Positions 1,164-31,959 of a stretch of DNA of 64,000 nucleotides are shown here, piece after piece (within the stretch, counting starts at the first letter, position 1; every line of letters begins with the position of its first letter). This DNA comes from Candidatus Rifleibacteriota bacterium. GTDB taxonomy: Bacteria; Muiribacteriota; Ozemobacteria; Ozemobacterales; Ozemobacteraceae. The stretch lies in contig JADFZL010000003.1 of assembly GCA_015232575.1 (NCBI GenBank), positions 192,001 through 256,000 of the forward strand. The letters run 5' to 3'. Both the position numbers and the translations under genes were made by a program. The notes under the pieces were generated by a model, which saw only the letters and a list, made by a program, of their open reading frames with translations, did no database searches and was not told the origin of the DNA.

Positions 1164-2093
1164 TTAATCCCCGAATTCGGAGGGTTTGATTTTTGATAGA
1201 TAATCGGTCAGCAGACGGTGTTTTCTATTTGCTGATTTTTTTTCTTTCTGATAAAGGCAAAAACAATCTTCTGGCAGTGCCAGTTTTGGAAATATTTCCT
1301 TTAAAAGACCATCATTCAACTCTTTCATTATGCTGTATTTTGGAAGAAGCGCAATTCCGATTCCTTCAACGGCTGCTGTGATCATTCCCCGCACGTGATT
1401 TACAGCAATAATCTGGCTCAGGGTGGGTCTTGATTCATGCGGCAAACTTGAAAGAAAATGTTCCCACCATTTCCCGTCTTTATCGAGAGAAAGAATTGGA
1501 GCAGATTCCAGAAAAGATAAGGTTTTTGATTCTACTGATAACAGAAGTTCAGGGCTGATAACAAGTACATATTTTTCACGGAAAAGCGGTGTTCGCGAGA
1601 TGCCTTTTATTCGATGCTCATTGCAATCAATTATAACATCAAGTTCATCACGAATAAGTGGATTAATCAAATCATGGCTCATGAGAAAATCTATTTCCAT
1701 TCCTGGATTTTTTTCCATAAAAGGTTTTATATGTTTCATAAGGATTGTGCAGCCAAATTCTACATTTGATCCAAGACGTAAATATCCTTTTCCTTTTTCC
1801 TGAAGCATTTTTATGGAATCTGTTGCATCTTCAAGTGAATAGAATGAATTTTCACATGCCTGGTATAGTTGCTTTCCAGCCTCAGTTAGCTTCAGAGACT
1901 TGCCTCTCCTTATAAAAAGCAGAGTGCCCATGAAAGTTTCGATCTTCCTGACCGAATGACTTACAGCAGACTGTGAAATGCAAAGCCGCTCTGCAGCAGA
2001 AGAAAATCCGCCAGTTTGAGCGACTGCAAAAAAAGGCCGCAACGGTGGAATATCAAAAACAGGAGAATTTGAAGTAAGATTCTTTTTCATCAA
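1164..2093 (-). CDS. LysR-family transcriptional regulator
   Basis: N-terminal HTH (LCISQSAVSHSVRKIE) and a LysR substrate-binding-like C-terminus. Confidence 0.8.
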   Translation of the reverse strand: MMKKNLTSNSPVFDIPPLRPFFAVAQTGGFSSAAERLCISQSAVSHSVRKIETFMGTLLFIRRGKSLKLTEAGKQLYQACENSFYSLEDATDSIKMLQEKGKGYLRLGSNVEFGCTILMKHIKPFMEKNPGMEIDFLMSHDLINPLIRDELDVIIDCNEHRIKGISRTPLFREKYVLVISPELLLSVESKTLSFLESAPILSLDKDGKWWEHFLSSLPHESRPTLSQIIAVNHVRGMITAAVEGIGIALLPKYSIMKELNDGLLKEIFPKLALPEDCFCLYQKEKKSANRKHRLLTDYLSKIKPSEFGD

Positions 2094-2734: not shown

Positions 2735-3031
2735 CTCCCCCTTAACCTCATTGCCATGAACTTAAGAATTTTGTCCCATGCTGAAATAATGTTTTGTACT
2801 AACAATCAAAATTAATTCGTGCCTTATTCGGGCTTGATAAATCAAGCCCCTACTGAACCTAGGATGAACGAATTATGCGGAATGCTGAATTCCTAATTAC
2901 GCAAAATCTTAAATGAAGGGGACAAATTTGAGTGTTAACTTTTGGGTGCCTCTCGTCTCGAACGAACGTGATAGATCTCCGTAATTGGGGAATTTCCCCT
3001 TAATTAAAATTTGCAGTAATAAGTTAATGGC

Positions 3032-3090
3032 AACGACCCTTACCTTATTCAAGGCATAACCATGGACAGGGTAAGGGTTGTCGTTTTATG
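3032..3090. terminator. Hairpin AACGACCCTTACC...GGTAAGGGTTGTCGTT followed by TTTTAT
   Basis: 13-bp inverted repeat read directly. The T-run is on the + strand. It overlaps the selD stop codon. Confidence 0.4.
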
Positions 3091-4132
3091 AAACGATGAT
3101 TTTTTTCCCACCAGAATGCAGGACTTTGCCGACTATTGAATTTGTTACTTGTTTTTGGGAAAGCAAGTTGATAAGTAGTGGCAATTCCGATTCAGGAAGG
3201 GAAATCAGCAATCCTCCGGATGTCTGAGGATCGAACAATACATCTATCATATCCAGAGCAATCCCTGGATGAAAATCAATCATTCCCTGGCGGTATTTTT
3301 TATTGCGGTATGCACCGCCAGGTACCATTCCCATCTGTGCATATTCCAGAGCCTCAGGAATTATGGGAAGCGAAGAAGAATCTATTTCGACCGTCACATC
3401 TGAATTTTCAACCATTTCAGCAAGATGCCCCAAAAATCCAAACCCTGTTATATCTGTACATGCATTTGCTGAAACCTGCATCATTGCATGTGATGCTTCT
3501 CTGTTAAGAGTTATCATAATTGTTTCTGCAGTCTTTATTGCTTCGGCAGAAGCCAGATCTGCTTTGAGGGCGGTATTTATGATACCGGTGCCGAGTGGTT
3601 TTGTCAGTACAAGTGAATCACCCGGCTTCATTCCGGAATTTCGAAGAAACTTGTCCGGATGAACAATTCCGGTGACAGAAAGACCGTATTTTATTTCTTT
3701 GTCGGTAATGCTGTGGCCTCCGACAAGTGAAACCTGAGTTTCATTCAGAACGGCCAGACCACCTTTAATGATTTCACGAAGAACGCTCAAATCCAGTCCA
3801 TCAGATGGAAATGCCACTAGATTCATTGCTGTGACAGGTTTGCCGCCCATTGCGTAGACATCGCTTAAAGCATTTGCAGCAGCAATTTTTCCGAAGGTAA
3901 ATGGATCGTCAACAATTGGTGTGAAAAAATCTACCGTTTGTACAAGAGCTATTTCATTTGTAAGCTTAAAGATTCCAGCATCTTCATTGCCTTTGAAGTC
4001 AGCAAGAGTCTGCGGGCTTTTATAATACACAAGTCCGCACAGAGCTTTATCCAGCAACTCTGGATTCAACTTAGCTGCTCAACCGGCAGCGGTAGCCATG
4101 CTTGTAAGTCTAATAATGTTTTTTTCGTTCAT
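3086..4132 (-). CDS. selD: Selenide, water dikinase SelD (selenoprotein; in-frame UGA-Sec at 4081..4079)
   Basis: The track ORF 3086..4069 begins with TTG inside the gene. Manual extension in the same frame gives MNEKNIIRLTSMATAAG-U-AAKLNPELL, where TGA sits at the position of the catalytic Cys/Sec of SelD (E. coli GAGCGCK). ATG at 4132. Confidence 0.85.
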
Positions 4133-4272
4133 TGTATTATCCTTATTATGATATTGTACATCTGATGAAATAAAATAAGTTTGAGAACCCTTACCGCCAA
4201 AAATAATTTAATTGTATATGAATTTCCATTTTAGTTATGCGTGTTTCCGAAAATGATAACATCAATTCAAAC

Positions 4273-4381
4273 GGCCTTGTAACGATTTCATATTCGTTGT
4301 TTTCCAGGGTGCATTACCGTATTTTCTACTTATTCTAACCTTTCGGATATCTCTACCTTCGGTCGAGATGACAATAAATAG
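4273..4381. repeat. Intergenic palindromic repeat (MITE-like family), copy A
   Basis: Shares CCTTGTAACGATTTCA...GTGCATTAC...ATTTTCTAC...ACCTTTCGGA.ATCTCT...GGTCGAGATGACAA.AAATAG with copy B at 5881..6023. Confidence 0.7.
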
Positions 4382-4401
4382 TTCGCCTGGAGGGCGATAA
4401 T

Positions 4402-4638
4402 TTAAACATTCCAGACATGAATTTCTTCGAATTCAACATTGTTATTATTAAAAATTGCTAATGAAGCTTCTTTGTTTTTTGAATCTATGCAAATGGCAAC
4501 TCCGCAATCAGAGCTGAATTCTCTAGGTGTTGGAATAGTTTCGAATGATATGCCAACCGATTTAAGAGCTTTTTCAGCTTTTAATGCAAAATAACTTGAA
4601 TAAAATGTGAAAACAATTTTCACTTTTTGAAAATCCAA
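4402..4638 (-). CDS. DUF3343-family small protein (selenium/sulfur-metabolism associated)
   Basis: 78 aa with a conserved SSDCG motif. Paralogue of 16222..16473. Lies between csd and selD. Confidence 0.6.
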   Translation of the reverse strand: MDFQKVKIVFTFYSSYFALKAEKALKSVGISFETIPTPREFSSDCGVAICIDSKNKEASLAIFNNNNVEFEEIHVWNV

Positions 4639-4699
4639 CTTTCATTTTTTTGCATGTGATTTTACTTTGCTTTTTTAATTTGTGATCTCATGCAAGCAT

Positions 4700-5848
4700 T
4701 CAGGCAAAGATAATCGATTTTAAGGATTCAATAAAGAAAATAATATTTTCTTTCGTTGTGAAAAAGCCTGGGCTTAATCGTACTGTTCCGCCTGGATAGG
4801 TACCTGTAGTTTTGTGTGCCAGTGGAGAACAATGAAGACCAGTTCTCGTCATAATCGAAAATTCTTTATCTAGTTTATGTCCGATTGTTGAAGAATTGAT
4901 TCCGACAACATTAAAGGAAATTGTACCAGTTCTGTCAGCGGAATTATCTGGTCCGTATACTTTTACTTCTTTGATTTCAGAAAGCATATCCAAAGTTAAT
5001 TTTGCAAGAGAAATTTCATGTTCATGGATATTTTCAATGCCGATTTCGTTAATAAAATTTACTCCGGCAGCAAGACCAGCGATTCCCGGGGTATTTGGAG
5101 TTCCACTTTCGAGACTGTCAGGAAGAAACTCAGGTTGAACTTCAAGTTCAGAATTGCTTCCCGTTCCGCCTTGTAAAAGAGATTCTAATTGTATGTTTTT
5201 TCCAATACAGATTCCGCCGATACCCTGTGGGCCAAGCATTGATTTGTGACCTGTAAACGTAAGAATGTCGATAAAATCTTTTTCTATATGAATCGGAATT
5301 AGTCCGGCAGTTTGAGCTGAATCAACCATGAAAGTGATATTTTTTTTTCTGCAGAAAGCGCCAATCATCTTCAGAGGTTGTAATGCTCCGGTAACATTCG
5401 AGGCGTGTGAAACGACGAGAAGCTTTGTTTTTTCAGAAATTTCATTCAAAAAAGATTCATCAGAAAGAATTCCGAATTTATTTGCCTTGAGAACGTTGAT
5501 TTTGATTCCGATTTTTTGCTCAAGATTTCTGAGCGGACGCATGACCGAATTATGTTCAAGTCCTGATACTGAAACGCTATCGCCTGCATTCAACAATCCT
5601 TTTAAGGCAATATTTATTGCGTGCGTAGCATTTGAAGTAAAAACAAGACGCTGCGAATCTGATAATCCGAAAAATGAAGCCAGTTGCTCTCTTGCATTAA
5701 AAATAAGTCTTGCTGCATCAAGCGACATGGCGTGTCCTGACCGACCCGGGTTCCCACCGGTTTGTTGCATGCACCTGCACACAGCATCAATTACAGCTGG
5801 AGGTTTCGGCCAGGACGTAGCGGAATTATCAAGATAAACTAAGTTCAT
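4700..5848 (-). CDS. Class V aminotransferase: cysteine desulfurase / selenocysteine lyase family
   Basis: PLP-enzyme motifs (TGHKSMLGPQGIGG). Resembles the cysteine-desulfurase family commonly adjacent to selD. Likely start ATG 5848 (MNLVYLDNSATS); the track starts at TTG 5878. Confidence 0.75.
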   Translation of the reverse strand: MNLVYLDNSATSWPKPPAVIDAVCRCMQQTGGNPGRSGHAMSLDAARLIFNAREQLASFFGLSDSQRLVFTSNATHAINIALKGLLNAGDSVSVSGLEHNSVMRPLRNLEQKIGIKINVLKANKFGILSDESFLNEISEKTKLLVVSHASNVTGALQPLKMIGAFCRKKNITFMVDSAQTAGLIPIHIEKDFIDILTFTGHKSMLGPQGIGGICIGKNIQLESLLQGGTGSNSELEVQPEFLPDSLESGTPNTPGIAGLAAGVNFINEIGIENIHEHEISLAKLTLDMLSEIKEVKVYGPDNSADRTGTISFNVVGINSSTIGHKLDKEFSIMTRTGLHCSPLAHKTTGTYPGGTVRLSPGFFTTKENIIFFIESLKSIIFA

Positions 5849-5880
5849 TGTATAGGAATTTTCATAATATGAATTCAACC

Positions 5881-6023
5881 CCTTGTAACGATTTCAGATT
5901 CATTGTCTTCCAGAGTGCATTACTGCATTTTGCTGTCATTTCGACCGAAGGGAGAAATCTCGTATTTTCTACCTGATCTGACCTTTCGGAGATATCTCTC
6001 TTTGGTCGAGATGACAAAAATAG
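5881..6023. repeat. Intergenic palindromic repeat (MITE-like family), copy B (full length with TIRs TGTCATTTCGACCGAAGG / CTTTGGTCGAGATGACA)
   Basis: Terminal inverted repeats and internal palindromes read directly. Matches copies A, C and D. Confidence 0.7.
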
Positions 6024-6044
6024 TCCGCTAGAATGGCGTTAATT

Positions 6045-6263
6045 TCACTGATTTTTCAGGAGAAGTTTGAAAGTGTCGTCTGATGAATCAAGCATTTCAA
6101 CTTTCCAACCTTCTTTATTGGACATTCTGGAAACATTCTCAACGGCTGCTTCTGAATCAACAATTACTTCAATTTCGCCCGTTTTCATTTCTCTGATTTT
6201 TTTCAGGGTTATGAGTACTGGTTGTGGGCAGGAAAGCCCTCTGGCATCAATTAATTCAGGCAT
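6045..6263 (-). CDS. yedF: TusA-like sulfur/selenium carrier YedF (short form, CPxP motif)
   Basis: GLSCPQP motif. 72 aa. Adjacent to yedE. Confidence 0.75.
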   Translation of the reverse strand: MPELIDARGLSCPQPVLITLKKIREMKTGEIEVIVDSEAAVENVSRMSNKEGWKVEMLDSSDDTFKLLLKNQ

Positions 6264-7359
6264 TTTTTCCTCCTGTAGATTTTTCTCTCATGAATAACCC
6301 GATAATAAGACAGAATACAAGACCTGCAATAACTGCAGTGGAGCCATTCTTTCCCAAACCATCGGGTGAACTTGCAAGCATGAAGTTATGAGAAAACGCT
6401 GCACCAGTAATCAATCCAAATGAAAATACTGCCGCATCGCCGTCACCTTCACCTGACAGAAACAACTGTCTTCCGGGACATCCACCTGCAAGGCAGAACG
6501 CAAATCCGGAAAGAACCATTCCAAGAAAGTTCCACAAAGAATCGACGTGGGCAATTGGCTGTCCAGACATTCCCGGGTTAAACTTTCCAATCACAAGATT
6601 GAATATGAAAGCAGCAGCTACTAATGACAATATTCCAGAAAATAGGTGGAACTGTTTGAACAAAATTAAATCTCTTATGGCACCCACTGTACAAAATCTG
6701 CTTCTCTGTGCAAGAAAGCCAATCAGCAAGCCAGCTGCAATTGAAAAATATAACGGCGCATGCATTGAGCCGGGTCCTTTAAGACTGTAAAAGATAAAAC
6801 CGCTGCTTTCTTTATCTGCAATTTGAGGATTCATGAAAAGTGCTGCCAGCAAAAGAACCATAAGACCAGGCATTATCAACCCTGTCGGAAAAGACGTTTT
6901 TTCTGATCTTCCAAGTGTGTATCCGCTTCTCAAAAATAAAGTGCCTGCAAAGACGCCGGTAAAGAGTCCGAGGAAACCAATAACAGCGTTAAGATCACCT
7001 GCCGATATTCGCAGAAGAGCTCGCCATGGGCAGCCTAAAAATACAAGTGCTCCGATCATCGCGAAAACTCCAAGCATGAATCGAACCAAAGGGCTTGAGC
7101 CGCCTCTCGGCTTGAATTCAGAAAACAAAAGTGCCGAAAGAAAAGATCCCAGTACAAAACCTGGTATTTCAGGCCTTATGTATTGTACAAGGGCAGCCTT
7201 GTGCAATCCAAGCGCACCGGTTACGTCCCGTAGAAAGCATGCAACGCAGACACCCATGTTTCCAGGGTTTCCCATTTTCTGAAGAAAAACCGCTGTTAAT
7301 CCAATAATAGCACCAACAACGATAATTCCAGTACTCGACGAAAAAAAATTCTTCTTCAA
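6256..7359 (-). CDS. yedE: YedE/YeeE-family membrane protein (putative selenium compound transporter)
   Basis: Polytopic membrane protein with the duplicated YedE-type repeat. Located between selB and yedF. Confidence 0.75.
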   Translation of the reverse strand: MKKNFFSSSTGIIVVGAIIGLTAVFLQKMGNPGNMGVCVACFLRDVTGALGLHKAALVQYIRPEIPGFVLGSFLSALLFSEFKPRGGSSPLVRFMLGVFAMIGALVFLGCPWRALLRISAGDLNAVIGFLGLFTGVFAGTLFLRSGYTLGRSEKTSFPTGLIMPGLMVLLLAALFMNPQIADKESSGFIFYSLKGPGSMHAPLYFSIAAGLLIGFLAQRSRFCTVGAIRDLILFKQFHLFSGILSLVAAAFIFNLVIGKFNPGMSGQPIAHVDSLWNFLGMVLSGFAFCLAGGCPGRQLFLSGEGDGDAAVFSFGLITGAAFSHNFMLASSPDGLGKNGSTAVIAGLVFCLIIGLFMREKSTGGKNA

Positions 7360-7362
7360 CTT

Positions 7363-9321
7363 CTATTCCTCCTGTTTTGGTTTGTTGATATTCGTTTTCA
7401 AAAACCTGAAATCGCCGTCTCTTCTGGTCAAACCTTCAGCATCAAAGTGTGCAAGCAGCAGCAGAGAAATCTTTCTATTTCCATTAACTAAATCTCTGAA
7501 ATCACTGACTTTTATGCCTTCTTTTTGTCCAGAAAGCTTTTCAATCAGTTTATTTCTGCAAGCACTAACAACCGAGGAATGAACATAACTGTCTTCGATT
7601 TTAATTATTTTTCCGGAAGAGACAAAGTGATGAAGTATTGCTTTCAGTTCTTTTTCAGCAATATTTTCTTTGTCAGCCAGAGATTGTATTTGGCTTGAGA
7701 GCGGGGTTTGCATTCCGCATTCCAGGAAGTAATTTTCCATCACCCGAACATTTTTTGCTGTTTTTGGATCAACCTTTCCTGTGTCATCAGCTGCAAACCA
7801 TGTTTTTGAAGATTCACGAAGTTTTTCTTTTTCAACAAGACCATTTAATATAGCCAGAAGGATCTCATCTGAAGATGATTTCTTTTCGAGCTTTAGTGTA
7901 CTTCTTATTTCATCAATGTTAATTCCTTTTTCAGAAAGCGGATTTCTCTTTCTGAAATCTTTAACTGCGGTTAAAATTCCGTTTCTGATATTTTCAAGAC
8001 ATATCTGTGAAACCAGCACCGGAGAGTCTTTTGTGTCGTATCGTACAATTCCTCTTAAAATTCTACTGTCTACTAACCTTAAAATACTATCAATGGAAAT
8101 ATTCAGCTTTTCTGCAATTTCCCTTACCATCATGGGCTTAAGTGATTTTCTTACTTCAAGTGATATAAGTTCAGAAAGTTTATTTTTTGCAACGAGTTCA
8201 AGTTCATTAATTAGTTTTTCAGGTCTTCGCCTGTGATGAAGCGGGGCAGCATCAATTATTTCTCCGCCGCCAATGGTTAAATCACAGGACGAATTTCGTA
8301 TTACAAATTTATCTCCATGTTGAAGGTAGATCGGCGTTTCAAAATGAATTTGTACAAGTGCAGATTCGCCGGTAGTAATTCTATTTTTGTTTATCAGGTG
8401 AATTTTTACCTGATGTTCGTAAGTACCGGTGTGAAAAATTACCTTTGACCAGATTCCAAGTTCACACTTTTTGGCGTACACATTTAATTTCGCATCTGCA
8501 ATGAGCGCATTTTTCAGTATTCTGTCTGATATTATCAGTCCGCGAGAAAATTCAGCTTTTTCAAGTCCGACAAGATTTATTGAAGCTCTGTCGCCAGCTT
8601 GAACTGCATGAACTTCCTCGCCATGTCTTTCCATTCTTCTGACTCTGAGTTCGCGCGGATTCTGGGACAAAAGAAATACATTGTTTTCCTTTTCAATTTT
8701 TCCGCCGATTACTGTTCCGGTTACAATTGTTCCGAAACCGCTTTTGCTGAATATCCGGTCAATGTACATGCGGAAAATGCCCTCAGGTGAACGGCTTTCG
8801 GAAGCTGAATAAATTTTCTGGATGGTATCTTTAAGTTCTGCAATTCCCTGACCGGTTTTTGCAGAGACTTTAATAATGGGGGAATCTTTCAGGAAAGAGT
8901 TACTAAGTAAATCAATAACATCAATTTCGCAGAGTTCAAGGAGTTCGTCATCTACCAGATCTGATTTGGTAAGTAAAACAATGCCTTTTTTTATTCCTAG
9001 GATTTCCATGATCTGGAGGTGTTCGATGGTCTGAGGCATTACGCTGCTGTCGGCAGCTATGACAAGTAGAACAAAGTCAATACCTGCTGCACCGCTGACC
9101 ATTGTATGGATAAAATCACGGTGCCCTGGTACATCAATGATTCCGATTTTTCCGTCATCGGGCATTGGAAGGCTTGCAAAGCCAAGGTGAATGGTGATTC
9201 CGCGCTCTTTTTCTTCTTTGTGCGTATCGCACTCAATGCCAGTGAGAGCCTTGATTAATGCTGTTTTTCCATGATCGACGTGACCCGCCGTTCCCATAAT
9301 GAGGTGTTTCACGTCCGCCAC
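7363..9321 (-). CDS. selB: Selenocysteine-specific elongation factor SelB
   Basis: GTPase motifs (GHVDHGKT, DVPGH, TKSD) plus a long C-terminal winged-helix extension. 652 aa. Confidence 0.9.
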   Translation of the reverse strand: MADVKHLIMGTAGHVDHGKTALIKALTGIECDTHKEEKERGITIHLGFASLPMPDDGKIGIIDVPGHRDFIHTMVSGAAGIDFVLLVIAADSSVMPQTIEHLQIMEILGIKKGIVLLTKSDLVDDELLELCEIDVIDLLSNSFLKDSPIIKVSAKTGQGIAELKDTIQKIYSASESRSPEGIFRMYIDRIFSKSGFGTIVTGTVIGGKIEKENNVFLLSQNPRELRVRRMERHGEEVHAVQAGDRASINLVGLEKAEFSRGLIISDRILKNALIADAKLNVYAKKCELGIWSKVIFHTGTYEHQVKIHLINKNRITTGESALVQIHFETPIYLQHGDKFVIRNSSCDLTIGGGEIIDAAPLHHRRRPEKLINELELVAKNKLSELISLEVRKSLKPMMVREIAEKLNISIDSILRLVDSRILRGIVRYDTKDSPVLVSQICLENIRNGILTAVKDFRKRNPLSEKGINIDEIRSTLKLEKKSSSDEILLAILNGLVEKEKLRESSKTWFAADDTGKVDPKTAKNVRVMENYFLECGMQTPLSSQIQSLADKENIAEKELKAILHHFVSSGKIIKIEDSYVHSSVVSACRNKLIEKLSGQKEGIKVSDFRDLVNGNRKISLLLLAHFDAEGLTRRDGDFRFLKTNINKPKQEE

Positions 9322-10724
9322 CTCTCGAAAACGGCTTTTTCGATGATTGATGCGATATATGGAATATCGTCCTCGTCGATTGTAAGTACATCAAAAACCA
9401 GTTCGCCCTGCCTGAGTATTCCCAGTATAGGCTTTTCAACGTTGAGAAGGTTGTGAAAAACGCGCGTTGCAAAGTCAGAGCGTTTCTGTTGAGACTTTTC
9501 TGACGAAGAAATTACAACGCCGAAACTTTTAATTTCAAGGTCGGGAAGGGTGCCACCGCCGCATTTTCCGGTAGTTTCAATTATTTCGGAAGAAATATTT
9601 TTTTCCTGCAGTTTATCATACAACAGTTTGGCTTTCTGATGGAGCTGTTTGTCGGTAGAATTCAGCATGGCAAATAGAGGAAGATTTTCTGCTATTTTCT
9701 TTTCATCCAGATAACACCTGGCAACGCTTGTCAATGTAGTAATGGTAAGCTTACAGACTCGTAAAGCCCGCATCAGCGGAGCTTTACTTAATCTACCAAC
9801 CAGATCTTTCCGTCCGCAGATTATTCCGGATTGCGGTCCACCGAAAAGTTTGTCGCCGCTGAAGAGAACCAGGTCAACTCCGCTTGATAAGGCGGACTTT
9901 ACATCGGGTTCATTTGAAAGCGGTATATTTTCCGGCTTGTACAAGAGTCCCGAACCGATATCATAAACGACAATCATTCCCCTTTTTTTTGCAAGTTCGA
10001 CAAGATCATCAAGTGACACTTCTTCAGTGAAACCATTGATCGAATAATTCGATTTATGCGCCTTAAATAAAATTTTTGTGTCGGCGGTAATAGCATTTTC
10101 ATAGTCAGAAATTCGTGTTCTGTTTGTTGTTCCGACTTCAATCATTTTTGCGCCTGAAGTTCCCATGATATCAGGAATTCTGAATGAACCGCCTATTTCT
10201 ATTAATTCACCGCGTGAAACAATGACTTCTTTATTTTTTGCAAGAGTACTTAGAGTTAATATGAGTCCGGCAGCGTTATTATTTACCACCAGAGCTTCTT
10301 CTGCGCCGGTAATATACTTTAGAATGGAATTAACATGTACGCTTCGGCTTCCACGGGTACCAGTTTCAAGATTCAATTCAAGGTTGGAATATCCGGACAG
10401 TGTTTCTGTGAGTTCTTCAAATATTCTTTTCCCGATAGGTGCTCGGCCAAGGTTTGTATGAATCAGAATTCCGGTAGCATTTATAACCCTGCGCAGAGAA
10501 GGACTGGATATATCTTTCGATACCTTTATAGCTTCTTCGATAATTTCATCTGAGCCTGGAACATCATCAAACTGATCATCAAGAATGCTTTTTCTAAGGG
10601 AATCAAGTGTTGAACGAAGCGAATGTTTAATTGTTTCAGAACCATATAAAGCGACTGCCGCAGATATTTTTTCATCCTGCAGAAGCTTATCAACGCCCGG
10701 AATCAATCGGAGTTTCTCTTTCAT
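9309..10724 (-). CDS. selA: L-seryl-tRNA(Sec) selenium transferase SelA
   Basis: SelA hallmark NATGILIHTNLGRAP; PLP-enzyme. Likely start ATG 10724 (MKEKLRLIPGV). Overlaps the selB start. Confidence 0.85.
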   Translation of the reverse strand: MKEKLRLIPGVDKLLQDEKISAAVALYGSETIKHSLRSTLDSLRKSILDDQFDDVPGSDEIIEEAIKVSKDISSPSLRRVINATGILIHTNLGRAPIGKRIFEELTETLSGYSNLELNLETGTRGSRSVHVNSILKYITGAEEALVVNNNAAGLILTLSTLAKNKEVIVSRGELIEIGGSFRIPDIMGTSGAKMIEVGTTNRTRISDYENAITADTKILFKAHKSNYSINGFTEEVSLDDLVELAKKRGMIVVYDIGSGLLYKPENIPLSNEPDVKSALSSGVDLVLFSGDKLFGGPQSGIICGRKDLVGRLSKAPLMRALRVCKLTITTLTSVARCYLDEKKIAENLPLFAMLNSTDKQLHQKAKLLYDKLQEKNISSEIIETTGKCGGGTLPDLEIKSFGVVISSSEKSQQKRSDFATRVFHNLLNVEKPILGILRQGELVFDVLTIDEDDIPYIASIIEKAVFERWRT

Positions 10725-10786
10725 ATTTTCCTGAAAATAATTAAATGCAGTCAATTATTGAATGATTGCATTTCAATAAAAATCAT

Positions 10787-10878
10787 CAGAGAGGGCAGGA
10801 ATCGAACCTGCCACAGACGGTATTATCCGCCCGCTACTGGTTTTGAAGACCAGCTGAAACACCAGTCCCGTCCTCTCC
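10787..10878 (-). tRNA. selC: tRNA-Sec (selC), anticodon UCA
   Basis: Reverse complement reads GGAGAGGACGGGACUGGUGUUUCAGCUGGUCUUCAAAACCAGUAGCGGGCGGAUAAUACCGUCUGUGGCAGGUUCGAUUCCUGCCCUCUCUG. It has a CUUCAAA anticodon loop, a long variable arm, a GGUUCGAUUCC T-loop and a ~92-nt length typical of tRNA-Sec. It lies immediately upstream of selA. Confidence 0.85.
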
Positions 10879-10972
10879 ATGCTTGTCTGTTAAGCGGACA
10901 AAATACTAAATGAAAAGAAACAAAAAGTCAACGAGTATTTTAATAATGAATTGAAAGCTGAATCATGGATTA

Positions 10973-12103
10973 TTATTCTGCGTGAATAAATGTTATCAAT
11001 TCATCGGCGTGATGAAGTTCTTTTCCCGAAGCATCATAGACTCTGAATCCATCGGTATAAATGGGTGCACCCGATTTGTCAAGGTCAAACCATAGCACAT
11101 GGTTTCCAACAGTTTCCTCTGTACCATCTGGCAATAATTTCTTCAGTTTCCACTCACGACTCACAGCCACTTGTCTACCTTCTTTTTTTGCGACTTCGAG
11201 AGTGTTTACGAGTTGTCCATGAATGATTTTATTTGAAATATCAATTTCCTGAGATTCCGCACCACCGGCGGTCATAAGTGGTTTTTTGCCAAAAATCAAG
11301 GAGAAAAGATTCAAAAAACCGAAGATTGCGACAACAATTCGATACGGGAACATAATAAGATCTTTCAGTATCTCAATGAAATTAGCTGGTTCCCCGGGTT
11401 TTTTATGCGGACGTTCAATATAGTACAAATTGTTGAGGTGGTCTCCTTTAGGAAGCAGATAATCAATGTCAGGATGCTCTTTGATCGGCTTTATATCACC
11501 ATTTGCAGTATTCAACATATAAATGGCGCAGGACGAACTACTTACAACATGTCCTTCGGGAGAGCGGGCAAGTCCGGATGTCTGATAATAGATGTAAGAG
11601 CCTTGAACCCAAGGATTCTCATCAATACAGTCCCCGGAAGTAATCACCCTGACATCTTTTCCTTCTTCGTTCATTTTAATCAGATGAATTGAAGCGTCAC
11701 GATTTACTTGCGTCGTGATTATCTTATTGTCTTCCTGAAGAAAAAATCCGTGAGGATCAAACTCTTCGCGATGAAACAGCCGAATCTCCTTATTTTCCCT
11801 GGTATCAAAGTAAAAAAGGCCCCGTGCTTTGCTCATTGCTAAAATGTAATACAGGCGTTCTCCAGATTTCCAACAGGCTCTGAATTGAGGGCGACTGGAA
11901 GAAAATTGTTGCTGTCTGGCTCCCCACAAAAGGGACCTTGATACCAAAGCTTCCCCTTCTGAAGCTTCACCAGAAGCCTTCCATGACTGTTTCTCCCATT
12001 GCTTTTTCTCAATTTCTGCTTTTTCAATTGCGAAAGAGCTCAGAATCTCAGTATCGCTAGAATTCAGAATTTGAAAAAGGGAATTGTTTTTGATTACATA
12101 CAT
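10973..12103 (-). CDS. Hypothetical protein (376 aa)
   Basis: Long ORF with no recognisable motifs; possibly a beta-propeller-like fold. Confidence 0.4.
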   Translation of the reverse strand: MYVIKNNSLFQILNSSDTEILSSFAIEKAEIEKKQWEKQSWKASGEASEGEALVSRSLLWGARQQQFSSSRPQFRACWKSGERLYYILAMSKARGLFYFDTRENKEIRLFHREEFDPHGFFLQEDNKIITTQVNRDASIHLIKMNEEGKDVRVITSGDCIDENPWVQGSYIYYQTSGLARSPEGHVVSSSSCAIYMLNTANGDIKPIKEHPDIDYLLPKGDHLNNLYYIERPHKKPGEPANFIEILKDLIMFPYRIVVAIFGFLNLFSLIFGKKPLMTAGGAESQEIDISNKIIHGQLVNTLEVAKKEGRQVAVSREWKLKKLLPDGTEETVGNHVLWFDLDKSGAPIYTDGFRVYDASGKELHHADELITFIHAE

Positions 12104-12271: not shown

Positions 12272-12550
12272 TCATACCTTCCTTGCTTTACTTCGAAATT
12301 TGGGTGTTAGAAGCGGGATTAAGCATCGTAAAGCCCTATTCACAGATTCTGAATCCGGAAAATAGGTTAGAATATCTGGTTCAATAATTACTGCTCCTTC
12401 CTTTGGAAGCACCTCTTTTAAAACAGTAATACCGTCAGCCTCATGAACAGTTATAGTATAACCAGCTTGCATGGCTCTATGATGCTTGCCACGCACTCCA
12501 CCTGTAAAATCATATTCATCGCGGATTTTTGTATCCTCTATTTCCGTCAT
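12272..12550 (-). CDS. Putative BrnA-like antitoxin (partner of BrnT)
   Basis: 92-aa ORF starting at an ATG immediately after the BrnT TAA stop (TAAATG). This is the classic brnT-brnA order. Confidence 0.5.
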   Translation of the reverse strand: MTEIEDTKIRDEYDFTGGVRGKHHRAMQAGYTITVHEADGITVLKEVLPKEGAVIIEPDILTYFPDSESVNRALRCLIPLLTPKFRSKARKV

Positions 12551-12835
12551 TTAAATACTCCTTTCTTCATAAAATCTTCGCTCTGATGGGGTTGCCTTAC
12601 GGCAACTGATGATGCGTATTTGCGACTTGCGTTCAGTATAAACTACGACCAGCACGCGATTTTTGTCAGAGTCACCGATGTCAATAAGTCGCTGCTCAAC
12701 TTCCGAGTGATCAGGATCGGTCATCGTTATTGAAAAAGGATCAAGAAAGACCGTGGTCGCTTCATCAAAACCAACCCCGTGCTTTTTGAGATTCTTTTTG
12801 GCCTTTTCTCCATCCCATTCAAAGTTAATTTTCAT
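12551..12835 (-). CDS. brnT: BrnT-family toxin (DUF497, RelE/ParE-fold ribonuclease)
   Basis: 94 aa. The WDxxKxxxNxxKHGV N-terminus is characteristic of BrnT. Confidence 0.7.
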   Translation of the reverse strand: MKINFEWDGEKAKKNLKKHGVGFDEATTVFLDPFSITMTDPDHSEVEQRLIDIGDSDKNRVLVVVYTERKSQIRIISCRKATPSERRFYEERSI

Positions 12836-13945: not shown

Positions 13946-15133
13946 TTAGTTCCAGAGCCAACCTTTTTTTTCCCAAAGCTCGTGCATGAAATCCTGCCAG
14001 GGATAGATGCGAATGTTTTCTTCTTCTAAATGTCGGCAATGTGGTTCACAGGAAACTACAATCAGCTTCTTGACGACTTGTTCGGAACCCAGCTTTTTGA
14101 GACCATCTAAGTGGCGATTTGTAATTCGTTCGCTCGCTTTTACTTCGATACCCCAGCGTTTGCCTACGATGAAGTCCACTTCAACTTCACCTTTTTCAGT
14201 GCGCCAGAGACCGATTTCTGTCTGAGGTTCGAAATAGTCTAAAAAAGCACGTAATTCTAAAAAAATGAAGTGTTCAAAAAAAGATCCGAAATCAGAACTT
14301 GCTGGAACAATTTTTTCCAATCTGCGCAGGAATCTTACGACTCCCATGTCAGAAAGATAAAACTTCGAAGAACCAGCAGATTTCCGTTTGACTGAGGCAC
14401 GAAATGGTTGCAATTCAAAGCCCAGCATAGTGTCTTTGAGAATCTGAAAATAGTTACTCACGGTTTGTCGGTTTATGCCAGTATCGCTTGCAATTGATGA
14501 ATAATTCAATATTTGCCCATTGCAGGAAGCTGCAACCTCCAAAAATCGTGCAAATGATGGTAGATTTCTTACAAGTCCTTCTGCAGCAATTTCCTCGGTA
14601 AGATATTGTCCGACGTATGATGCAAGATCTTCATCCGGTAAGCGTGAAAGATAGTGTGGCGGAAGAGTGCCATTGTGAATTGCGTGTTTCAGATCAAAAT
14701 TGGGTAGTTCAGAACACGAGAATCCATGTAAATGACGCATTCTCGCACGTCCACCCAACAGATTAGAACCCGCTCGCTTTAGTTTGCGAGCGCTGGAACC
14801 AGACATTATAAATCTTGTATTCTTATTCTCAATCAGCCAGTGAATTTCATCCAGAAGTTCCGGAATTTTCTGTATTTCGTCAATAATTACCAGGCCGCTT
14901 TCGTTATTCGATGCCGCGAGACGCTCTCTAAGAAGAGTTGGGTTCCGCTGGAATTCAAGAAATTCTGCCCGATCAAGTAAATCAACGAATAAAACAGGCT
15001 TTTCGCTCAGTTGATGTTTAAGAAAAGATGATTTACCTGCTTGTCGCGGTGCAAAAAGAAAACAAGACCTGTCAAAAATAAGATCATCAATATTCAAGGA
15101 TCTTTTATAATAGGTTTTATTATTATTTCCCAT
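13946..15133 (-). CDS. AAA+ ATPase of the DUF4143 (COG1373) family
   Basis: Walker A (APRQAGKS), Walker B (LVIIDEIQ) and the C-terminal DUF4143-like region. Confidence 0.7.
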   Translation of the reverse strand: MGNNNKTYYKRSLNIDDLIFDRSCFLFAPRQAGKSSFLKHQLSEKPVLFVDLLDRAEFLEFQRNPTLLRERLAASNNESGLVIIDEIQKIPELLDEIHWLIENKNTRFIMSGSSARKLKRAGSNLLGGRARMRHLHGFSCSELPNFDLKHAIHNGTLPPHYLSRLPDEDLASYVGQYLTEEIAAEGLVRNLPSFARFLEVAASCNGQILNYSSIASDTGINRQTVSNYFQILKDTMLGFELQPFRASVKRKSAGSSKFYLSDMGVVRFLRRLEKIVPASSDFGSFFEHFIFLELRAFLDYFEPQTEIGLWRTEKGEVEVDFIVGKRWGIEVKASERITNRHLDGLKKLGSEQVVKKLIVVSCEPHCRHLEEENIRIYPWQDFMHELWEKKGWLWN

Positions 15134-15632: not shown

Positions 15633-16247
15633 ATGGCAAAAACCGTTGATGCACGCGGATTAGCTTGTCCTCAGCCCGTTCTTCTGGCGAAAAAAGCCAT
15701 TGAGGAAAATGAGGAAGTCAAAATTCTTGTTGACAACGAGACAGCGGTTGAAAACATCCTCAGAATTGCTGCCAAAATGAACTGCAAGGTTCAAGTGAGT
15801 GAATCGCAGGGAAACACTCGGGAAGTAATGATAAAACGATCAACTGAAACATCTGTTTCAGTTATTGCTGAATCTGAAAAAGCGTGTATTGCAGATTCTG
15901 TGAAAAACAAGCGTAAGGTAGTGATTGTTTTGTCAGATAATTGTATGGGTAGGGGCGACGATCAATTAGGGGATATTCTGATTCGAAGTTTTCTGCATAC
16001 GATTTCAGAAATGTCTGTTAAACCAGCAAAGATAATATGCTACAATGCAGGTGTAAAGCTCGCAGCAAAGGGTTCGTCCGTAATTGATGACCTTCGCCGA
16101 CTGTCGGAAGTTGGGGTAGAAATTCTTGTTTGCGGAACCTGCGTTAAATTTTATGATATTGCCGATCAGATTGGTGTGGGGATTATTTCAAATATGTATG
16201 ATATTGCTGATTCTCTAACAAATGCAGATCATGTCCTCAAACCTTGA
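15633..16247 (+). CDS. yedF: Selenium metabolism protein YedF (long form: TusA-like N-domain + DsrE-like C-domain)
   Basis: N-terminal GLACPQP TusA motif and a C-terminal DsrE/DsrF-like domain. ~200 aa, matching the selenium-associated YedF architecture. Confidence 0.7.
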   Translation: MAKTVDARGLACPQPVLLAKKAIEENEEVKILVDNETAVENILRIAAKMNCKVQVSESQGNTREVMIKRSTETSVSVIAESEKACIADSVKNKRKVVIVLSDNCMGRGDDQLGDILIRSFLHTISEMSVKPAKIICYNAGVKLAAKGSSVIDDLRRLSEVGVEILVCGTCVKFYDIADQIGVGIISNMYDIADSLTNADHVLKP

Positions 16248-19971: not shown

Positions 19972-22656
19972 CTATGCTTTTTCCAGTTTACATGCGCAGA
20001 CCTTGTATTCCGGTATTTTTGCTTCCGGATCAAGTGCGTTAATGGTTAGTTTGTTGGCAGGAGCTTCGATGAAGTGGAAAGGCATAAAAGCAGTTCCTTT
20101 AGGAATTCGCTTTGTAACGAAAGCCTTAGTGGTAACGCTGCCGCGGCGGGTTGTTACTTTAACGGTTCCACTGTTTGAAACGCCTAGTTCAACGGCATCT
20201 TCTACTGAAATCATTACATGAGGTCCGGCAAGATTATTCAATCCTTCGGATTTTCTTGTCATGGTTCCGGTGTGGAAGTGCTGTAGAATTCTTCCGGTTG
20301 TCAGATAAACCGGATAGTCTTTGTCGGGTAATTCAGCGGGATCTTTGAATGGAATTGGGAATAATGTCCCTTTTCCCTTGGTGAATTTACCAATATGAAG
20401 AACAGGAGTACCAGGGTGTTCTTTTGTTGGACATGGCCAATGCAGACCTTTTCCTTCAAGTCTTTTGTAATCTAATCCGGCATAGCTCGGAGTGCATTTG
20501 GTCAATTCATCAAAGATATCTTCTGCGGTATTATATTTCCAGTTGTGACCCATTTTATTGGCCAGAAGTTGATGAATCTGCCAGTCATCTTTTGCTTCCC
20601 CGGGTGGTTCAACGGCTTTGTGCAACAATTGTACACGGCGTTCAGTATTAGTGAAGGTACCAAGTTTTTCGGGCCATGTACTGGCAGGAAGTACAACATG
20701 TGCCATTTTAGCTGTTTCCGTAAGGAAAATGTCTTCGACAACCAGGAAATCAAGCTTTTTGAGGGCTTCTTCAACATGGTGAAGATCTGGATCACTCAGC
20801 ATCGGATTTTCACCCATAATGTAGAATGACTTTACTTCTCCCTTGCCAGCTTTGTCTATGGCAACTGTAAGCGTTAATCCATTTTCAGCACTGAGCTGAC
20901 AACCCCAGAACTTTTCGAACTTTTCCTTGATTTCAGGAAGTGTAACTTTCTGATAAGCAGTGTAAACGACTGGAAGTCCGCCAACGTCACATGCGCCCTG
21001 GACGTTTGACTGTCCACGCAGCGGATTAACACCACCACCAACTTTACCCATATTGCCACAAATCATTTGCAGATTTGCACAAGATTTAACATTGTCAACA
21101 CCAGTGGTGTGCTGGGTAATGCCCATTGCGTAATAAATCGCTGCTGACTTTGCTTTTCCAAACATTTCTGCAATTGCTTCGAGGGTTTTTGCCGGGATAC
21201 CAGAAATCTTCTCAACGTGCTCAGGAGTGTATTTTTCTACTTCTGCTTTCAACGCTTCAAAACCTTCACATCTTTCAGCGATGAATTCTTTGTCTTCCCA
21301 GCCATTCTTGATGATTACATGCATAATTCCGTTAAGAACAGCAACATCTGTACCTGGTCTCTGAGCGGCATAGATTTTGGCGTAATCTGCCATTTTAATT
21401 TGTTTGGGATCAATAACAATTATTTTCAACCCATGTTTTGATGCCTTTTTCAAGCGGGCAGCAATTACCGGATGGGCTTCAGATGTATCGGAACCAATTA
21501 TTAGAGCAACTTCACTTTTACCAACTCCTGCGATATCATTTGTCATAGCTCCAGAACCAAAAGATGCGGCCAGACCGGCCACAGTGGAGCTGTGTCATAA
21601 TCGCGCACAGTGATCGACGTTATTCGTCCCTATCACTGTGCGAAAGAACTTTTGAAAAGTGTAGTTTTCTTCGTTTGTAACTTTTGCTGAAGAAAAACCC
21701 ATTAAAGAATTTGGACCATGTTTTTGTTTAATTTCAGAAAACTTTGTCGCTACTAATTCAATTGCTTCATCCCATGAAGCTTTTCTGAAAGAGCCATCAT
21801 TGTTTCTGATTAAAGGTGTAGTAAGTCTTTCCTTGTGATCTACAAAGTCATATCCAAAGCGGCCTTTTACACAAAGCATACCGTAATTGGATGGGGCGCT
21901 TTCAACGCCGTTGACCCGGACAATCTTGTTGATTTTCCGGTCGACATGAATTTCCATCTGGCAACCTACACCACAATAAGGACAAACTGAAGTCACTTTG
22001 TCAGTTTCCCAGTAACGCGCCATTCCTTTTGCTTTTTTCTCAGTTATTGCGCCAACTGGACAAATCTGAGAACATTCACCACACTGGACACAGGTGGAAT
22101 CACCCATCTTCTTGTCATCATCAAAAATGACTTCAGTGTTGTGTCCTCTGTAACCAAAATTCAAAACATCGTTTGTAACAGTATTCTGACATGCAGAAAC
22201 GCATCTTCCACAAGCGATGCACTTGTTTCGATCGACCTGAATAAATTCTGAGCTGTCATCAAGATTCGGTTCAAAATCAGCATAGTTCAATGAAGGTTTT
22301 TCAATGCCAAGATAATATGCGGCATCCTGAAGTTCGCACTTGCCGTTTTGCTGACAGGCAATACAATCGTGCGTTCCATTAGAAAGCAGAAGATCAATAA
22401 CAAGTTTCTGACCATCCACAGCTTTCTGGGATCTCGTCTGAATCTTCATTCCCTCTTTCACAATTACTGAACAGGATGTCTGAAGACCTTTCATCCCTTC
22501 AACCTCTACTACGCAGGCTCGGCATTTCCCTGCCACGCCAACCTTCTCATGGTAACAAAGAGAAGGAATATAAATTCCATTTTTCCTTGCGGCCTGAAGA
22601 ATGGTTTGCCCTTCTTCAGCCTGCAATTGCTTGTCATTGATGGTAATTAGCATCAA
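19972..22656 (-). CDS. fdhA: Formate dehydrogenase catalytic subunit, selenocysteine-containing (UGA-Sec at 21597..21595); the track shows it as two ORFs
   Basis: ORFs 21595..22656 and 19972..21582 are in the same frame, separated only by TGA. The joined translation VDHCARL-U-HSSTVAGLAAS aligns with the Cys paralogue's VDHCARL-C-HASTVAGL. A SECIS-like structure follows the UGA. Confidence 0.85.
21541..21594 (-). ncRNA. SECIS-like stem-loop immediately 3' of the fdhA UGA
   Basis: The RNA reads CACAG-CUCCA-CUGUG, then a 7-bp stem AGCUCCA...UGGAGCU enclosing GGCC-GGUCU-GGCC. The equivalent region of the Cys paralogue lacks this complementarity. Confidence 0.5.
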
Positions 22657-29271: not shown

Positions 29272-29380
29272 TTAGTAGGAAGTCGTATACGAAGCATCCT
29301 GCCGCGTTTGTCTTAAGCGGCTGGAAGTCGCTTCTACTTTTGTATGCAAAATCATAAATATGTGGGCAAATTTGCATGTT

Positions 29381-31876: not shown

Positions 31877-31959
31877 TTTTTTTGATTGTGCAAAAATAAT
31901 ATTTCCTCACACAACCCTCTCTGCTGAAAATAAAAAGGGTAGGGAAGTGTGAGGTTTTT

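Follow-up and report, generated by a model that had tools for sequence, protein, structure and literature searches.

The minus-strand cluster at 10879..3086 of the window, the whole 64,000-nt stretch of DNA that was analysed, very probably represents the selenium-utilisation genes of a member of Candidatus Riflebacteria, with two known modules joined head-to-tail. Eight parts follow each other in the order selC, selA, selB, yedE, a tusA-like gene, csd, a DUF3343 gene and selD (Table 1). They are contiguous, and neither a foreign gene nor any opposite-strand gene is found among them. A sequence-only reading had proposed this gene order on a common strand, and ORF coordinates as well as family models bore it out. 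That reading had also named family models as its check: SelA, SelB, SelD and YedE all scored above the curated cut-offs, and the DUF3343 (PF11823) and TIGR01977 cysteine-desulfurase models were passed too. Its gene identities stood with one exception, since the 'yedF' of the cluster is a TusA/SirA-like protein that stays below both YedF cut-offs; all other parts of the cluster pass curated family models. The cluster is a tidy yet ordinary example, because its parts all fall into known families and similar clustering has already been described.

Table 1. Features of the selenium gene cluster and of related loci in the window.
Feature	Position	Strand	Evidence or remark
Candidate sigma-70-like promoter	10903..10931	minus	TTGACT-17-TAGTAT, 9/12 matches; 24 nt upstream of tRNA-Sec
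selC, tRNA-Sec	10786..10879	minus	ARAGORN, anticodon UCA
selA, L-seryl-tRNA(Sec) selenium transferase	9309..10754	minus	TIGR00474 532.8 bits, cut-off 267.9
selB, Sec-specific elongation factor	7363..9321	minus	TIGR00475 338.4 bits, cut-off 242.25
yedE, selenium-associated membrane protein, putative Se transporter	6256..7359	minus	TIGR04112 seleno_YedE
72-aa TusA/SirA-like protein	6045..6263	minus	PF01206 TusA 71.9 bits, cut-off 29
Repeat copy 1	5849..6044	minus	sequence comparison; long imperfect palindrome and shared 3' module
csd, class-V aminotransferase, TIGR01977 (EF2568) cysteine desulfurase/Sec lyase family	4700..5878	minus	475.9 bits, cut-off 377
DUF3343, putative Se/S carrier, 78 aa	4402..4638	minus	PF11823 75.9 bits, cut-off 25
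Repeat copy 2	4256..4402	minus	opens with terminator-like hairpin TCGCCCTCCAGGCGA and T-rich run, right after DUF3343 stop
selD, selenophosphate synthetase, Sec-containing	3086..4132	minus	TIGR00476 354.4 bits after TGA, cut-off 125
Candidate selD SECIS hairpin	4032..4078	minus	stem AUCCAG/CUGGAU, loop AGUUG ~20 nt past UGA
Hairpin 3' of selD	3031..3083	minus	-32.5 kcal/mol, z -3.8, 0/200 shuffles as stable
Long-form YedF, outside cluster	15633..16247	plus	TIGR03527 212.1 bits, cut-off 110
fdhA, Cys paralog	16554..19235	minus	HCARL-C-HASTVAG; TIGR01591 878 bits, cut-off 666
fdhA, formate dehydrogenase alpha with Sec	19972..22656	minus	TGA 21597..21595, HCARL-U-HSSTVAG

The tRNA-Sec earlier placed at 10787..10878 was recovered by ARAGORN and matched Rfam RF01852 with 58.6 bits (gathering cut-off 47). 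Its anticodon, stems, variable arm and covariance-model score are those of a bacterial tRNA-Sec: the ARAGORN structure has an 8-bp acceptor and a 5-bp T stem, giving a 13-bp branch, and a long variable arm of 7 bp. The CCA end is not encoded in selC, and the tRNA is nearly invariant among the Riflebacteria relatives. The promoter upstream of it is a candidate only, because such sites in the region do not exceed shuffled expectation. SelA was identified by its domains, PF03841 (425 bits) and PF12390 (Se-cys_synth_N), and by the PLP-lysine motif SGDKL, found as FSGDKLFGGPQ in the translation. Its true start is likely the ATG at 10724, which has AGGA before it; the SelA alignments of relatives begin at codon 10-11 of the ORF. 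SelB combines the EF-Tu-like GTPase domain (PF00009 GTP_EFTU) and PF03144 with the SelB beta-barrel and the C-terminal SelB winged-helix domains (PF25461, PF09107), in addition to its score above the cut-off. It is 100% identical to a database protein of 649 aa from a Candidatus Riflebacteria MAG (P0001), and translation probably begins with the GTG at 9312, which overlaps the selA stop as GTGA.

The selD gene had been read as encoding a Sec-containing enzyme, and indeed a TGA at 4081..4079 lies in frame at the catalytic position, as codon 18. The motif AAG-U-AAKL in the translation contains G-U-AAK, which fits the N-terminal G-[UC]-x-x-K of SelD, and with the score above the cut-off this identifies the Sec form. 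The hairpin behind the TGA (-16.6 kcal/mol, z only -1.1 against shuffles) is consistent with a SECIS element. A second hairpin begins 3 nt past the selD stop, has no T tract and is likely the 3' end or a stabiliser of the unit. When in-frame TGAs were scanned throughout the 64-kb window, selD and one fdhA were the credible selenoprotein genes; the other TGA candidates were inside longer ORFs, in a different frame, or were simply the preceding stop. The Sec-FdhA has a NuoG-like N-terminus and its gene is located ~9 kb from selC. It carries an fdhF-like SECIS hairpin with loop GGUCU at 21583..21565 (-21.9 kcal/mol, z -2.4). The Cys paralog adjoins it on the downstream side with 80-87% DNA identity between the copies, and there the fold of the region matching the SECIS is not more stable than that of shuffles (z +1.2). 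When 30 additional ORFs of the window were scanned against Pfam, neither SelU, YqeB/YqeC nor other selenium-trait markers were detected among them. We also considered the LysR gene at 2093..1164, ~1 kb downstream of selD, as a LysR_Se regulator. It scored 95.6 bits against NF040786 (cut-off 250) and its best match was GcvA-like (149 bits, cut-off 288). It is thus outside the selenium-associated subfamily, and no dedicated regulator was identified.

We then looked at how the parts are joined. The earlier claim that gaps are at most 4 nt or overlaps, with two exceptions, holds for three junctions, selA/selB (-4 nt), selB to yedE (+3 nt) and yedE/tusA (-8 nt), so that selA, selB, yedE and tusA are the only genes coupled by overlaps or a 3-nt gap. 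The selA/selB overlap is 4 nt with the start as in P0001 and 13 nt otherwise. The claim does not hold for further gaps: selA begins 31 nt after selC if the TTG is its start and 61 nt after it if the ATG is, and between csd and DUF3343 there are 61 nt free of repeats. The two largest gaps, tusA to csd (166-196 nt) and DUF3343 to selD (269 nt), do contain the predicted repeat, whose copies are 78-84% identical over ~97 and 70 nt. It is a dispersed intergenic palindromic repeat present at five sites in the window, and no Rfam family matched it even at E <= 1. The possibility that it is a selenium-specific cis-regulatory RNA was rejected as unsupported, since the palindromic core also occurs at three intergenic sites unrelated to selenium genes. 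Neither the metagenome collection nor 91 loci contained an exact match to the 3' module, which is common only to the two copies in the cluster.

A single transcription unit of all eight parts is plausible from this layout, yet unproven, because the two largest gaps hold these palindromic copies. It is quite possible, although we lean slightly against it, that the genes are co-directional and still form two or three units, namely selC-selA-selB-yedE-tusA, csd-DUF3343 and selD, with the inserted repeat hairpins acting as terminators, attenuators or processing sites and with promoters of their own downstream. Such a division would agree with the three wide gaps after tusA, with the terminator-like hairpin and T-rich run directly past the DUF3343 stop, with the strong fold of repeat copy 1 (~30 bp stem, -38.2 kcal/mol, z -2.6), and with the separate or divergent units in which relatives keep their trafficking genes (L083, L090, L070). 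It is opposed by the uninterrupted single strand, by promoter and terminator scans in which counts did not exceed shuffled expectation, and by copy 1 itself, which shows no convincing terminator hairpin with a T tract. Moreover, REP/MITE-like palindromes within operons are commonly read through by transcription.

The packing of the cluster had been called unusual. This is correct for the exact eight-part, single-strand layout, which did not occur at any of 65 informative YedE loci, nor in six relative lineages, where seven out of 11 loci could be read downstream of selB. It is not correct in a wider sense, since near-complete clusters exist elsewhere and colocalisation is known (PMC5322559). 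A tusA-like gene follows yedE in nearly all of 156 YedE loci, and the yedE-tusA-csd-DUF3343 block was found again in several phyla. All eight components also occur within ~9-10 kb in a Spirochaetota MAG (L070, JAUVYC010000001), and seven of them within a similar distance at a metagenome locus (L146). Unlike the cluster of the window, both loci use two strands, with selA-selC, or selB-selA, facing the remaining genes in convergent orientation, and they differ in gene order, with 32-51% protein identity. The colocalised Sec/Se clusters of Slackia heliotrinireducens, Coprococcus comes and Lachnospiraceae bacterium 1_4_56FAA described by Lin et al. (2015; PMC5322559) likewise unite all genes for Sec decoding with those for Sec lyase, SirA-like, YedE, YedF and DUF3343 proteins, with the same inferred supply logic. 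These clusters, from Actinomycetota and Bacillota, are distributed among one or two small regions or operons and contain additional genes, in many cases a LysR_Se regulator, whereas the window has eight contiguous parts on one strand, YedF proper outside the cluster and a nearby LysR that fails the LysR_Se model. In the Enterococcus faecalis operon EF2566-EF2568 (YedF TIGR03527, SelD and SclA/TIGR01977; Haft and Self 2008, PMC2276186), a TIGR01977 desulfurase/Sec lyase also adjoins selD with a TusA-domain protein, but Sec decoding and local selA, selB and selC are absent and the orphan SelD serves Se-dependent molybdenum hydroxylases. Streptomyces incarnatus selABCD resembles the window in having the Sec machinery, selC included, beside a Sec-FDH; the YedE/TusA/Csd/DUF3343 set is not reported there (PMC4498112).

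Closer relatives share the decoding core only. The selC-selA-selB genes are kept in six of six sampled Riflebacteria lineages, with the 4-nt selA/selB overlap and usually beside Sec-FDH genes, and nothing else of the cluster is conserved. As in the window, the Riflebacteria/Ozemobacteraceae MAGs (L081-L091) have a near-identical tRNA-Sec directly upstream of selA, and genes for Sec-FdhA, NuoEF-like proteins, FdhD and MobA close by. Contrary to the window, yedE does not follow selB in any of those for which the downstream sequence is available. In two relatives, a long YedF, csd and a fused DUF3343::SelD(Cys) form a separate block, while in the window separate DUF3343 and Sec-SelD genes are appended to selB. 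In one lineage, an integrase island lies between selC and selA.

This distribution bears on the idea, which we consider unlikely, that the compact layout marks a horizontally mobile selenium island through which this genome recently gained the trait as a whole. Csd and SelD are 46-55% identical to homologs from outside Riflebacteria, versus 38-45% to the Riflebacteria csd, DUF3343::SelD block, and the best relatives of YedE, at 66%, are from Desulfobacterota. A BrnT toxin gene and an AAA/DUF4143 gene lie nearby, the tRNA-Sec serves as an integration site in a relative (L085), and transfer of whole Se-trait clusters has been proposed by Lin et al. (PMC5322559). Contrarily, GC and GC3 are uniform between the cluster and its neighbours, and the borders of the cluster showed neither an integrase nor flanking direct repeats. 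SelA and SelB share 67-72% identity with those of Riflebacteria relatives versus 47-50% with others, and the synteny of selC-selA-selB extends throughout the phylum. These identities and this synteny indicate vertical inheritance of the core and rule out recent whole-cluster transfer for it; an acquisition would concern the trafficking half at most and would not be recent.

Five genes of the cluster, yedE, the tusA-like gene, csd, DUF3343 and selD, are putative selenium-handling genes. YedE, YedF, DUF3343 and Sec lyase have been tied to SelD through co-occurrence and neighbourhood (PMC5322559; PMC2276186). The YedE of the window scored 484.6 bits against TIGR04112 (cut-off 200) and 28-39 bits against the thiosulfate transporter models YeeE/TsuA, and thus belongs to the type that Lin et al. 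(2015) knew from Se-utilising organisms only (PMC5322559). In M. maripaludis, yedE mRNA rises 5.3 log2-fold upon Se starvation and the deletion has no clear phenotype; Se transport by YedE has not been demonstrated experimentally in any organism (PMC11097638). The TusA-like protein has a CPxP motif, read as GLSCPQP, and is putatively sulfur/selenium-transferase-like. It was rejected as a YedF: the long form has a SirA/TusA and a DsrE-like domain with CGxC, and the short form exceeds the PRK11018 cut-off, while this protein has the TusA domain only and reached 59.1 bits against TIGR03527 (cut-off 110) and 37.7 against PRK11018 (cut-off 79). The YedF outside the cluster contains both PF01206 TusA and PF02635 DsrE domains. 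Csd is a member of TIGR01977, a family linked to SelD by Haft and Self (2008; PMC2276186), with PF00266 at 295.8 bits and the motifs TGHKS (PLP lysine) and HCSP (active-site Cys). Its translation probably starts with the ATG at 5848. At 349.8 bits it remains below the cut-off of 525 of the SclA model NF040779; SclA of E. faecalis, also a TIGR01977 member, is reported to favour Sec over Cys (PMC13188914). The DUF3343 protein is a PF11823 Se_S_carrier with a conserved Cys within SSDCG, a residue noted by Lin et al. (2015), who found no Se-specific subfamily and also reported DUF3343 from organisms lacking SelD (PMC5322559). Genuine ORFs with DUF3343::SelD fusions were present in ~100 of the best 120 protein clusters, from at least four lineages, and such widespread fusions support a direct hand-off from DUF3343 to SelD.

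That yedE, tusA-like, csd and DUF3343 handle sulfur rather than selenium, for instance through thiosulfate uptake and a persulfide relay that feeds the synthesis of Fe-S, molybdopterin or thio-tRNA, and with a place beside the sel genes that is incidental or serves FDH cofactor sulfuration, is highly improbable: the homology of YedE to YeeE/TsuA, the classic sulfur-relay nature of TusA and class-V desulfurases, the DUF3343 occurrences without SelD and the missed YedF and SclA cut-offs would suit it, but it is opposed by the 485 bits of YedE for a family reported from Se users only, by the placement of the module before selD and after selB, to which it has a 3-nt junction, by the DUF3343::SelD fusions and by the SelD link of TIGR01977.

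In the selenium reading, the first module, selC-selA-selB, is the conserved Sec-decoding core of the lineage. SerRS serylates tRNA-Sec, SelA turns Ser-tRNA(Sec) into Sec-tRNA(Sec) with selenophosphate, and SelB-GTP brings it to UGA codons with a SECIS hairpin behind them. The second module, from yedE to selD, would be the selenium-supply line, with roles suggested by published comparative genomics and the fusions found here. YedE would be a putative importer of a selenium species, and the TusA-like and DUF3343 proteins small Cys-bearing carriers. The TIGR01977 PLP enzyme may act on free selenocysteine to release selenide or a perselenide, or else on cysteine to release sulfur, and SelD converts selenide to the selenophosphate used by SelA. 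Sec-FdhA is a client enzyme, with the Cys-containing copy as a backup. Since SelD is itself a selenoprotein, full-length SelD would depend on the upstream gene products, and we infer a positive feedback on selenium status as well as co-transcription of the eight parts.

Taken further, the cluster could act as a feed-forward unit that senses selenium and, with the Sec/Cys FdhA pair next to it, as a self-contained Se-responsive switch, a reading that as a whole we regard as improbable. With the Sec-dependent selD last, full-length SelD and selenophosphate would appear only once the upstream products and selenium are available; the repeat hairpins would be tunable attenuators or processing sites that set the ratio of decoding to supply genes; and the lineage would have swapped the phylum-typical DUF3343::SelD(Cys) fusion for separate DUF3343 and Sec-SelD.

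In the literature we found no description of selenium metabolism in Riflebacteria; the one paper in which 'Riflebacteria' and 'selenocysteine' occur together concerns another subject. The cluster provides a clean, fully annotated prokaryotic selenium-utilisation toolkit in this candidate phylum. The DUF3343::SelD fusions and the 3-nt selB-yedE junction leave the current picture of selenium metabolism unchanged and give independent genomic support to the putative part that YedE, TusA-like and DUF3343 proteins play in supplying SelD with selenium. Finally, the compact cluster may be a handy cassette for testing what YedE and DUF3343 do in a heterologous host.

The eight-part selenium cluster proposed by the sequence-only reading is real, because the profile scores, a tRNA-Sec and an in-frame TGA in selD all point to it, and its parts lie in the order claimed, all on the minus strand. 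The tRNA-Sec expected at 10787..10878 was called by ARAGORN with one more nucleotide at each end, matched its Rfam family and has an 8-bp acceptor, a 5-bp T stem and a 7-bp variable arm. SelA, SelB, YedE, the TIGR01977-family enzyme, DUF3343 and SelD were recovered by their family models, but the protein that had been called YedF scored below both curated YedF models (59 < 110 and 38 < 79 bits). As it carries a TusA/SirA domain only, the name YedF was rejected. In the published nomenclature (Lin et al. 2015, PMC5322559; Haft & Self 2008, PMC2276186), the name YedF (TIGR03527) belongs to a protein of two domains, SirA and DsrE, and the partner of YedE is named 'SirA-like', which is what the in-cluster 72-aa protein is. 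A long-form YedF gene lies outside the cluster on the plus strand, adjoining the Cys-type fdhA; in relatives, this gene is the first of a yedF-csd-DUF3343::selD block. The selD TGA (4081..4079, residue 18) lies in the catalytic motif AAG-U-AAKL and is followed, about 20 nt further, by a candidate SECIS hairpin with a stability not above that of shuffled sequence (z -1.1). Its loop contains GU, the expectation for a bacterial SECIS. Immediately 5' of selC, on the same strand, a 376-aa ORF (10973..12103, -) matched DUF5050 below threshold and nothing in NCBIfam.

Features of the selenium cluster, the formate dehydrogenase genes, the repeat family and the fusions in relatives
Feature	Position	Strand	Score or detail	Junction to next cluster gene
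selC, tRNA-Sec, anticodon UCA	10786..10879	-	ARAGORN; Rfam RF01852 58.6 bits vs gathering 47	31 nt (TTG start) or 61 nt (ATG start, AGGA before ATG)
selA	10754..9309	-	TIGR00474 533 bits	4-nt GTGA overlap (start as in identical database protein) or 13-nt overlap
selB	9321..7363	-	TIGR00475 338 bits	3 nt
yedE	7359..6256	-	TIGR04112 485 bits	8-nt overlap
tusA-like, 72-aa TusA-domain gene	6263..6045	-	TusA/SirA domain only	166-196 nt
csd, class-V aminotransferase	5878..4700	-	TIGR01977 family, 476 bits	61 nt
DUF3343/PF11823	4638..4402	-	76 bits	269 nt
selD	4132..3086	-	TIGR00476 354 bits	
Long-form YedF (TusA + DsrE)	15633..16247	+	TIGR03527 212 vs 110 bits	
NuoEF-like gene	26132..24414	-		
fdhD	24331..23534	-		
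mobA	23450..22764	-		
fdhA, Sec copy	22656..19972	-	TGA 21597..21595, HCARL-U-HSSTVAG	
fdhA, Cys paralog	19235..16554	-	Cys in place of Sec, tandem downstream of Sec copy	
Modular palindromic repeat family	2893-2979 (partial, just past selD), 4256-4402, 5849-6044, 29347-29463, 37990-38160		all intergenic	
DUF3343 (PF11823)::Cys-type SelD	L083:1469-2725	+	~420 aa	
DUF3343 (PF11823)::Cys-type SelD	L090:4759-6042	-	~420 aa	
DUF3343 (PF11823)::Cys-type SelD	database proteins P0121-P0233		~420 aa	

Gaps of at most 4 nt or overlaps had been reported throughout, except at two sites with a repeat. This holds for selA-selB-yedE-tusA but not for the selC-selA gap of 31 or 61 nt or the 61-nt csd-DUF3343 gap, and judging from these spacings translational coupling is evident for selA-selB-yedE-tusA only. 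The repeat itself was confirmed, since the two largest gaps (tusA-csd and DUF3343-selD) both carry a copy (78-84% identity). One in-cluster copy also has a 37-nt arm not present in the other, which makes its ~30-bp palindrome complete. The palindromic core, TGTCATTTCGACCGAAGG..GAGAAATCTC, had no exact match among 91 loci, the 3' module common to the two in-cluster copies only had none in the metagenome collection or the 91 loci, and no Rfam family matched the repeat. We read it as a probable dispersed REP/MITE-like intergenic element of this genome, not a selenium-specific signal. A terminator-like hairpin (4397..4383) opens the copy at 4256-4402, directly after the DUF3343 stop; promoter-like and terminator-like sites in the cluster region were not above shuffled expectation in number. 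All eight parts may be transcribed together, and past the selD stop a very stable hairpin (-32.5 kcal/mol, z -3.8) is plausibly the 3' end.

To place this layout, the seven proteins and tRNA-Sec were mapped onto 156 loci with a gene for a YedE relative, of which 80 came from reference genomes and 76 from metagenomes. A TusA-like gene after yedE was nearly universal, the yedE-tusA-csd-DUF3343 block recurred in several phyla, selD often lay within a few kb, and the selB-yedE junction was also found in two loci (L118 and L120). The single-strand eight-part order was shared by none of the 65 loci with sufficient flank on both sides, to which the count was restricted, and the exact arrangement is thus rare. 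Yet a Spirochaetota locus (L070) clusters all eight components like the window, but on two strands, and a metagenome locus (L146) clusters 7 of the 8, also on two strands, unlike the window. The packing described earlier as unusual is therefore rare in its exact form, but the tendency to cluster is well known (Lin et al. 2015) and the window stands at its far end.

Eleven loci from six Riflebacteria/Ozemobacteraceae lineages were then compared. The window's SelB is 100% identical to a protein encoded on a 558-kb contig of a Candidatus Riflebacteria MAG, and the matches ranking next (63-72% identity) come from Riflebacteria/Ozemobacteraceae. The tRNA-Sec is nearly invariant and lies upstream of selA-selB in every relative locus with upstream sequence, directly adjoining selA except in L085 and L086, and selA and selB overlap by 4 nt as in the window. 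The selA-selB pair usually has NuoEF-like, FdhD and MobA genes beside it, together with an FdhA gene split by gene callers at an in-frame stop. Seven loci reach more than ~200 nt beyond selB, and in none of them does yedE follow; of the other four, L082 duplicates L081, and L084, L086 and L087 run out at the selB stop or no more than ~200 nt from it. In two relatives (L083 and L090), long YedF and csd form a separate block together with a DUF3343::SelD fusion, whose Sec position is occupied by Cys. In two loci (L081:8474-8580 and L088:8477-8580), the selA ATG is only 7 nt past the tRNA-Sec 3' end, too close for a Shine-Dalgarno sequence to fit in between; such spacing argues for a tRNA-mRNA co-transcript in this lineage and implies that the selA mRNA would be nearly leaderless once the tRNA 3' end is processed. 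Between tRNA-Sec and selA, L085 (2159-8583) and L086 (849-7273) hold a ~6 kb island that encodes an integrase of phage type as well as a DUF3631 protein, suggesting that tRNA-Sec may serve as an integration site in their lineage.

SelA and SelB are 67-72% identical to those of the Riflebacteria relatives vs 47-50% to others, whereas Csd and SelD are 38-45% identical to the relatives' block vs 46-55% to homologs in other phyla. The best YedE relatives are from Desulfobacterota (66%), and GC and GC3 are uniform. As sampling is thin we can only infer, as the simplest reading, that the selC-selA-selB core was inherited vertically and that a supply module of different source was added, not recently.

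The sequence-only reading predicted a selenoprotein-rich organism. A formate dehydrogenase gene set shares the strand of the cluster and lies ~9 kb away from selC. The TGA of its Sec-type fdhA (residue 354 counted from the TTG start at 22656) is followed by an fdhF-like, SECIS-like hairpin (loop GGUCU; -21.9 kcal/mol, z -2.4). The matching RNA of the Cys paralog is no more stable than shuffled sequence (z +1.2), its hairpin being degenerate. A scan of the 64-kb window found no further credible TGA-interrupted gene besides selD and fdhA, and none of 30 further ORFs scanned against Pfam carried another selenium-trait marker, so that the window documents two selenoproteins (SelD and FdhA) plus a Cys backup FdhA. 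The LysR gene downstream of selD was rejected as a selenium-associated regulator, since it scored below the cut-off of that LysR subfamily (96 < 250 bits). The stretch between the formate dehydrogenase genes and the cluster encodes a BrnT-family toxin (12835..12551, -), a probable antitoxin in the ORF downstream of it (12550..12272, -) and, at 13946..15133 (-), an AAA_14/DUF4143 ATPase. A few kb from the formate dehydrogenase operon, 29600..32838 encodes a TonB-dependent receptor with a Plug domain, along with an HTH_17 + PBP_like regulator whose architecture may resemble that of molybdate/tungstate-sensing regulators. A 1624-aa ORF (33060..37934, +) has four tandem 267-nt repeats at 35854-36949 (60-79% identity).

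SerRS loads serine onto tRNA-Sec, SelA swaps the hydroxyl via selenophosphate, which SelD makes from selenide and ATP, and SelB-GTP decodes UGA by binding Sec-tRNA(Sec) and the SECIS (PMC13188914). Upstream of these steps, YedE would import a selenium species, the TIGR01977 enzyme would free selenide from selenocysteine, and the TusA-like protein and DUF3343 would bring selenium to SelD. Selenium transport by YedE has no demonstration in any organism; in M. maripaludis, yedE deletion gave no clear phenotype, and yedE mRNA rose by 5.3 log2-fold on selenium starvation (PMC11097638). E. faecalis SclA, a relative of the TIGR01977 enzyme, prefers Sec (PMC13188914); the window's Csd is below the SclA model cut-off. 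Because SelD itself requires Sec, its synthesis would depend on the upstream genes and positive feedback may be possible. Among the 120 protein clusters with the highest scores, ~100 have DUF3343 fused to the SelD N-terminus; they come from Riflebacteria, Geobacteraceae, Syntrophotaleaceae and Planctomycetota, and one variant (P0202) is TusA::SelD. Most of the DUF3343::SelD entries are nameless and the named ones are annotated as SelD only; the fusion goes unmentioned in the accessible portions of papers on both DUF3343 and SelD. These fusions lend new support to the proposed hand-over of selenium to SelD. Every component of the cluster is already known, as is the tendency of such genes to lie together, and what the window holds is an unusually compact cluster of known type in a little-studied phylum, the Riflebacteria.
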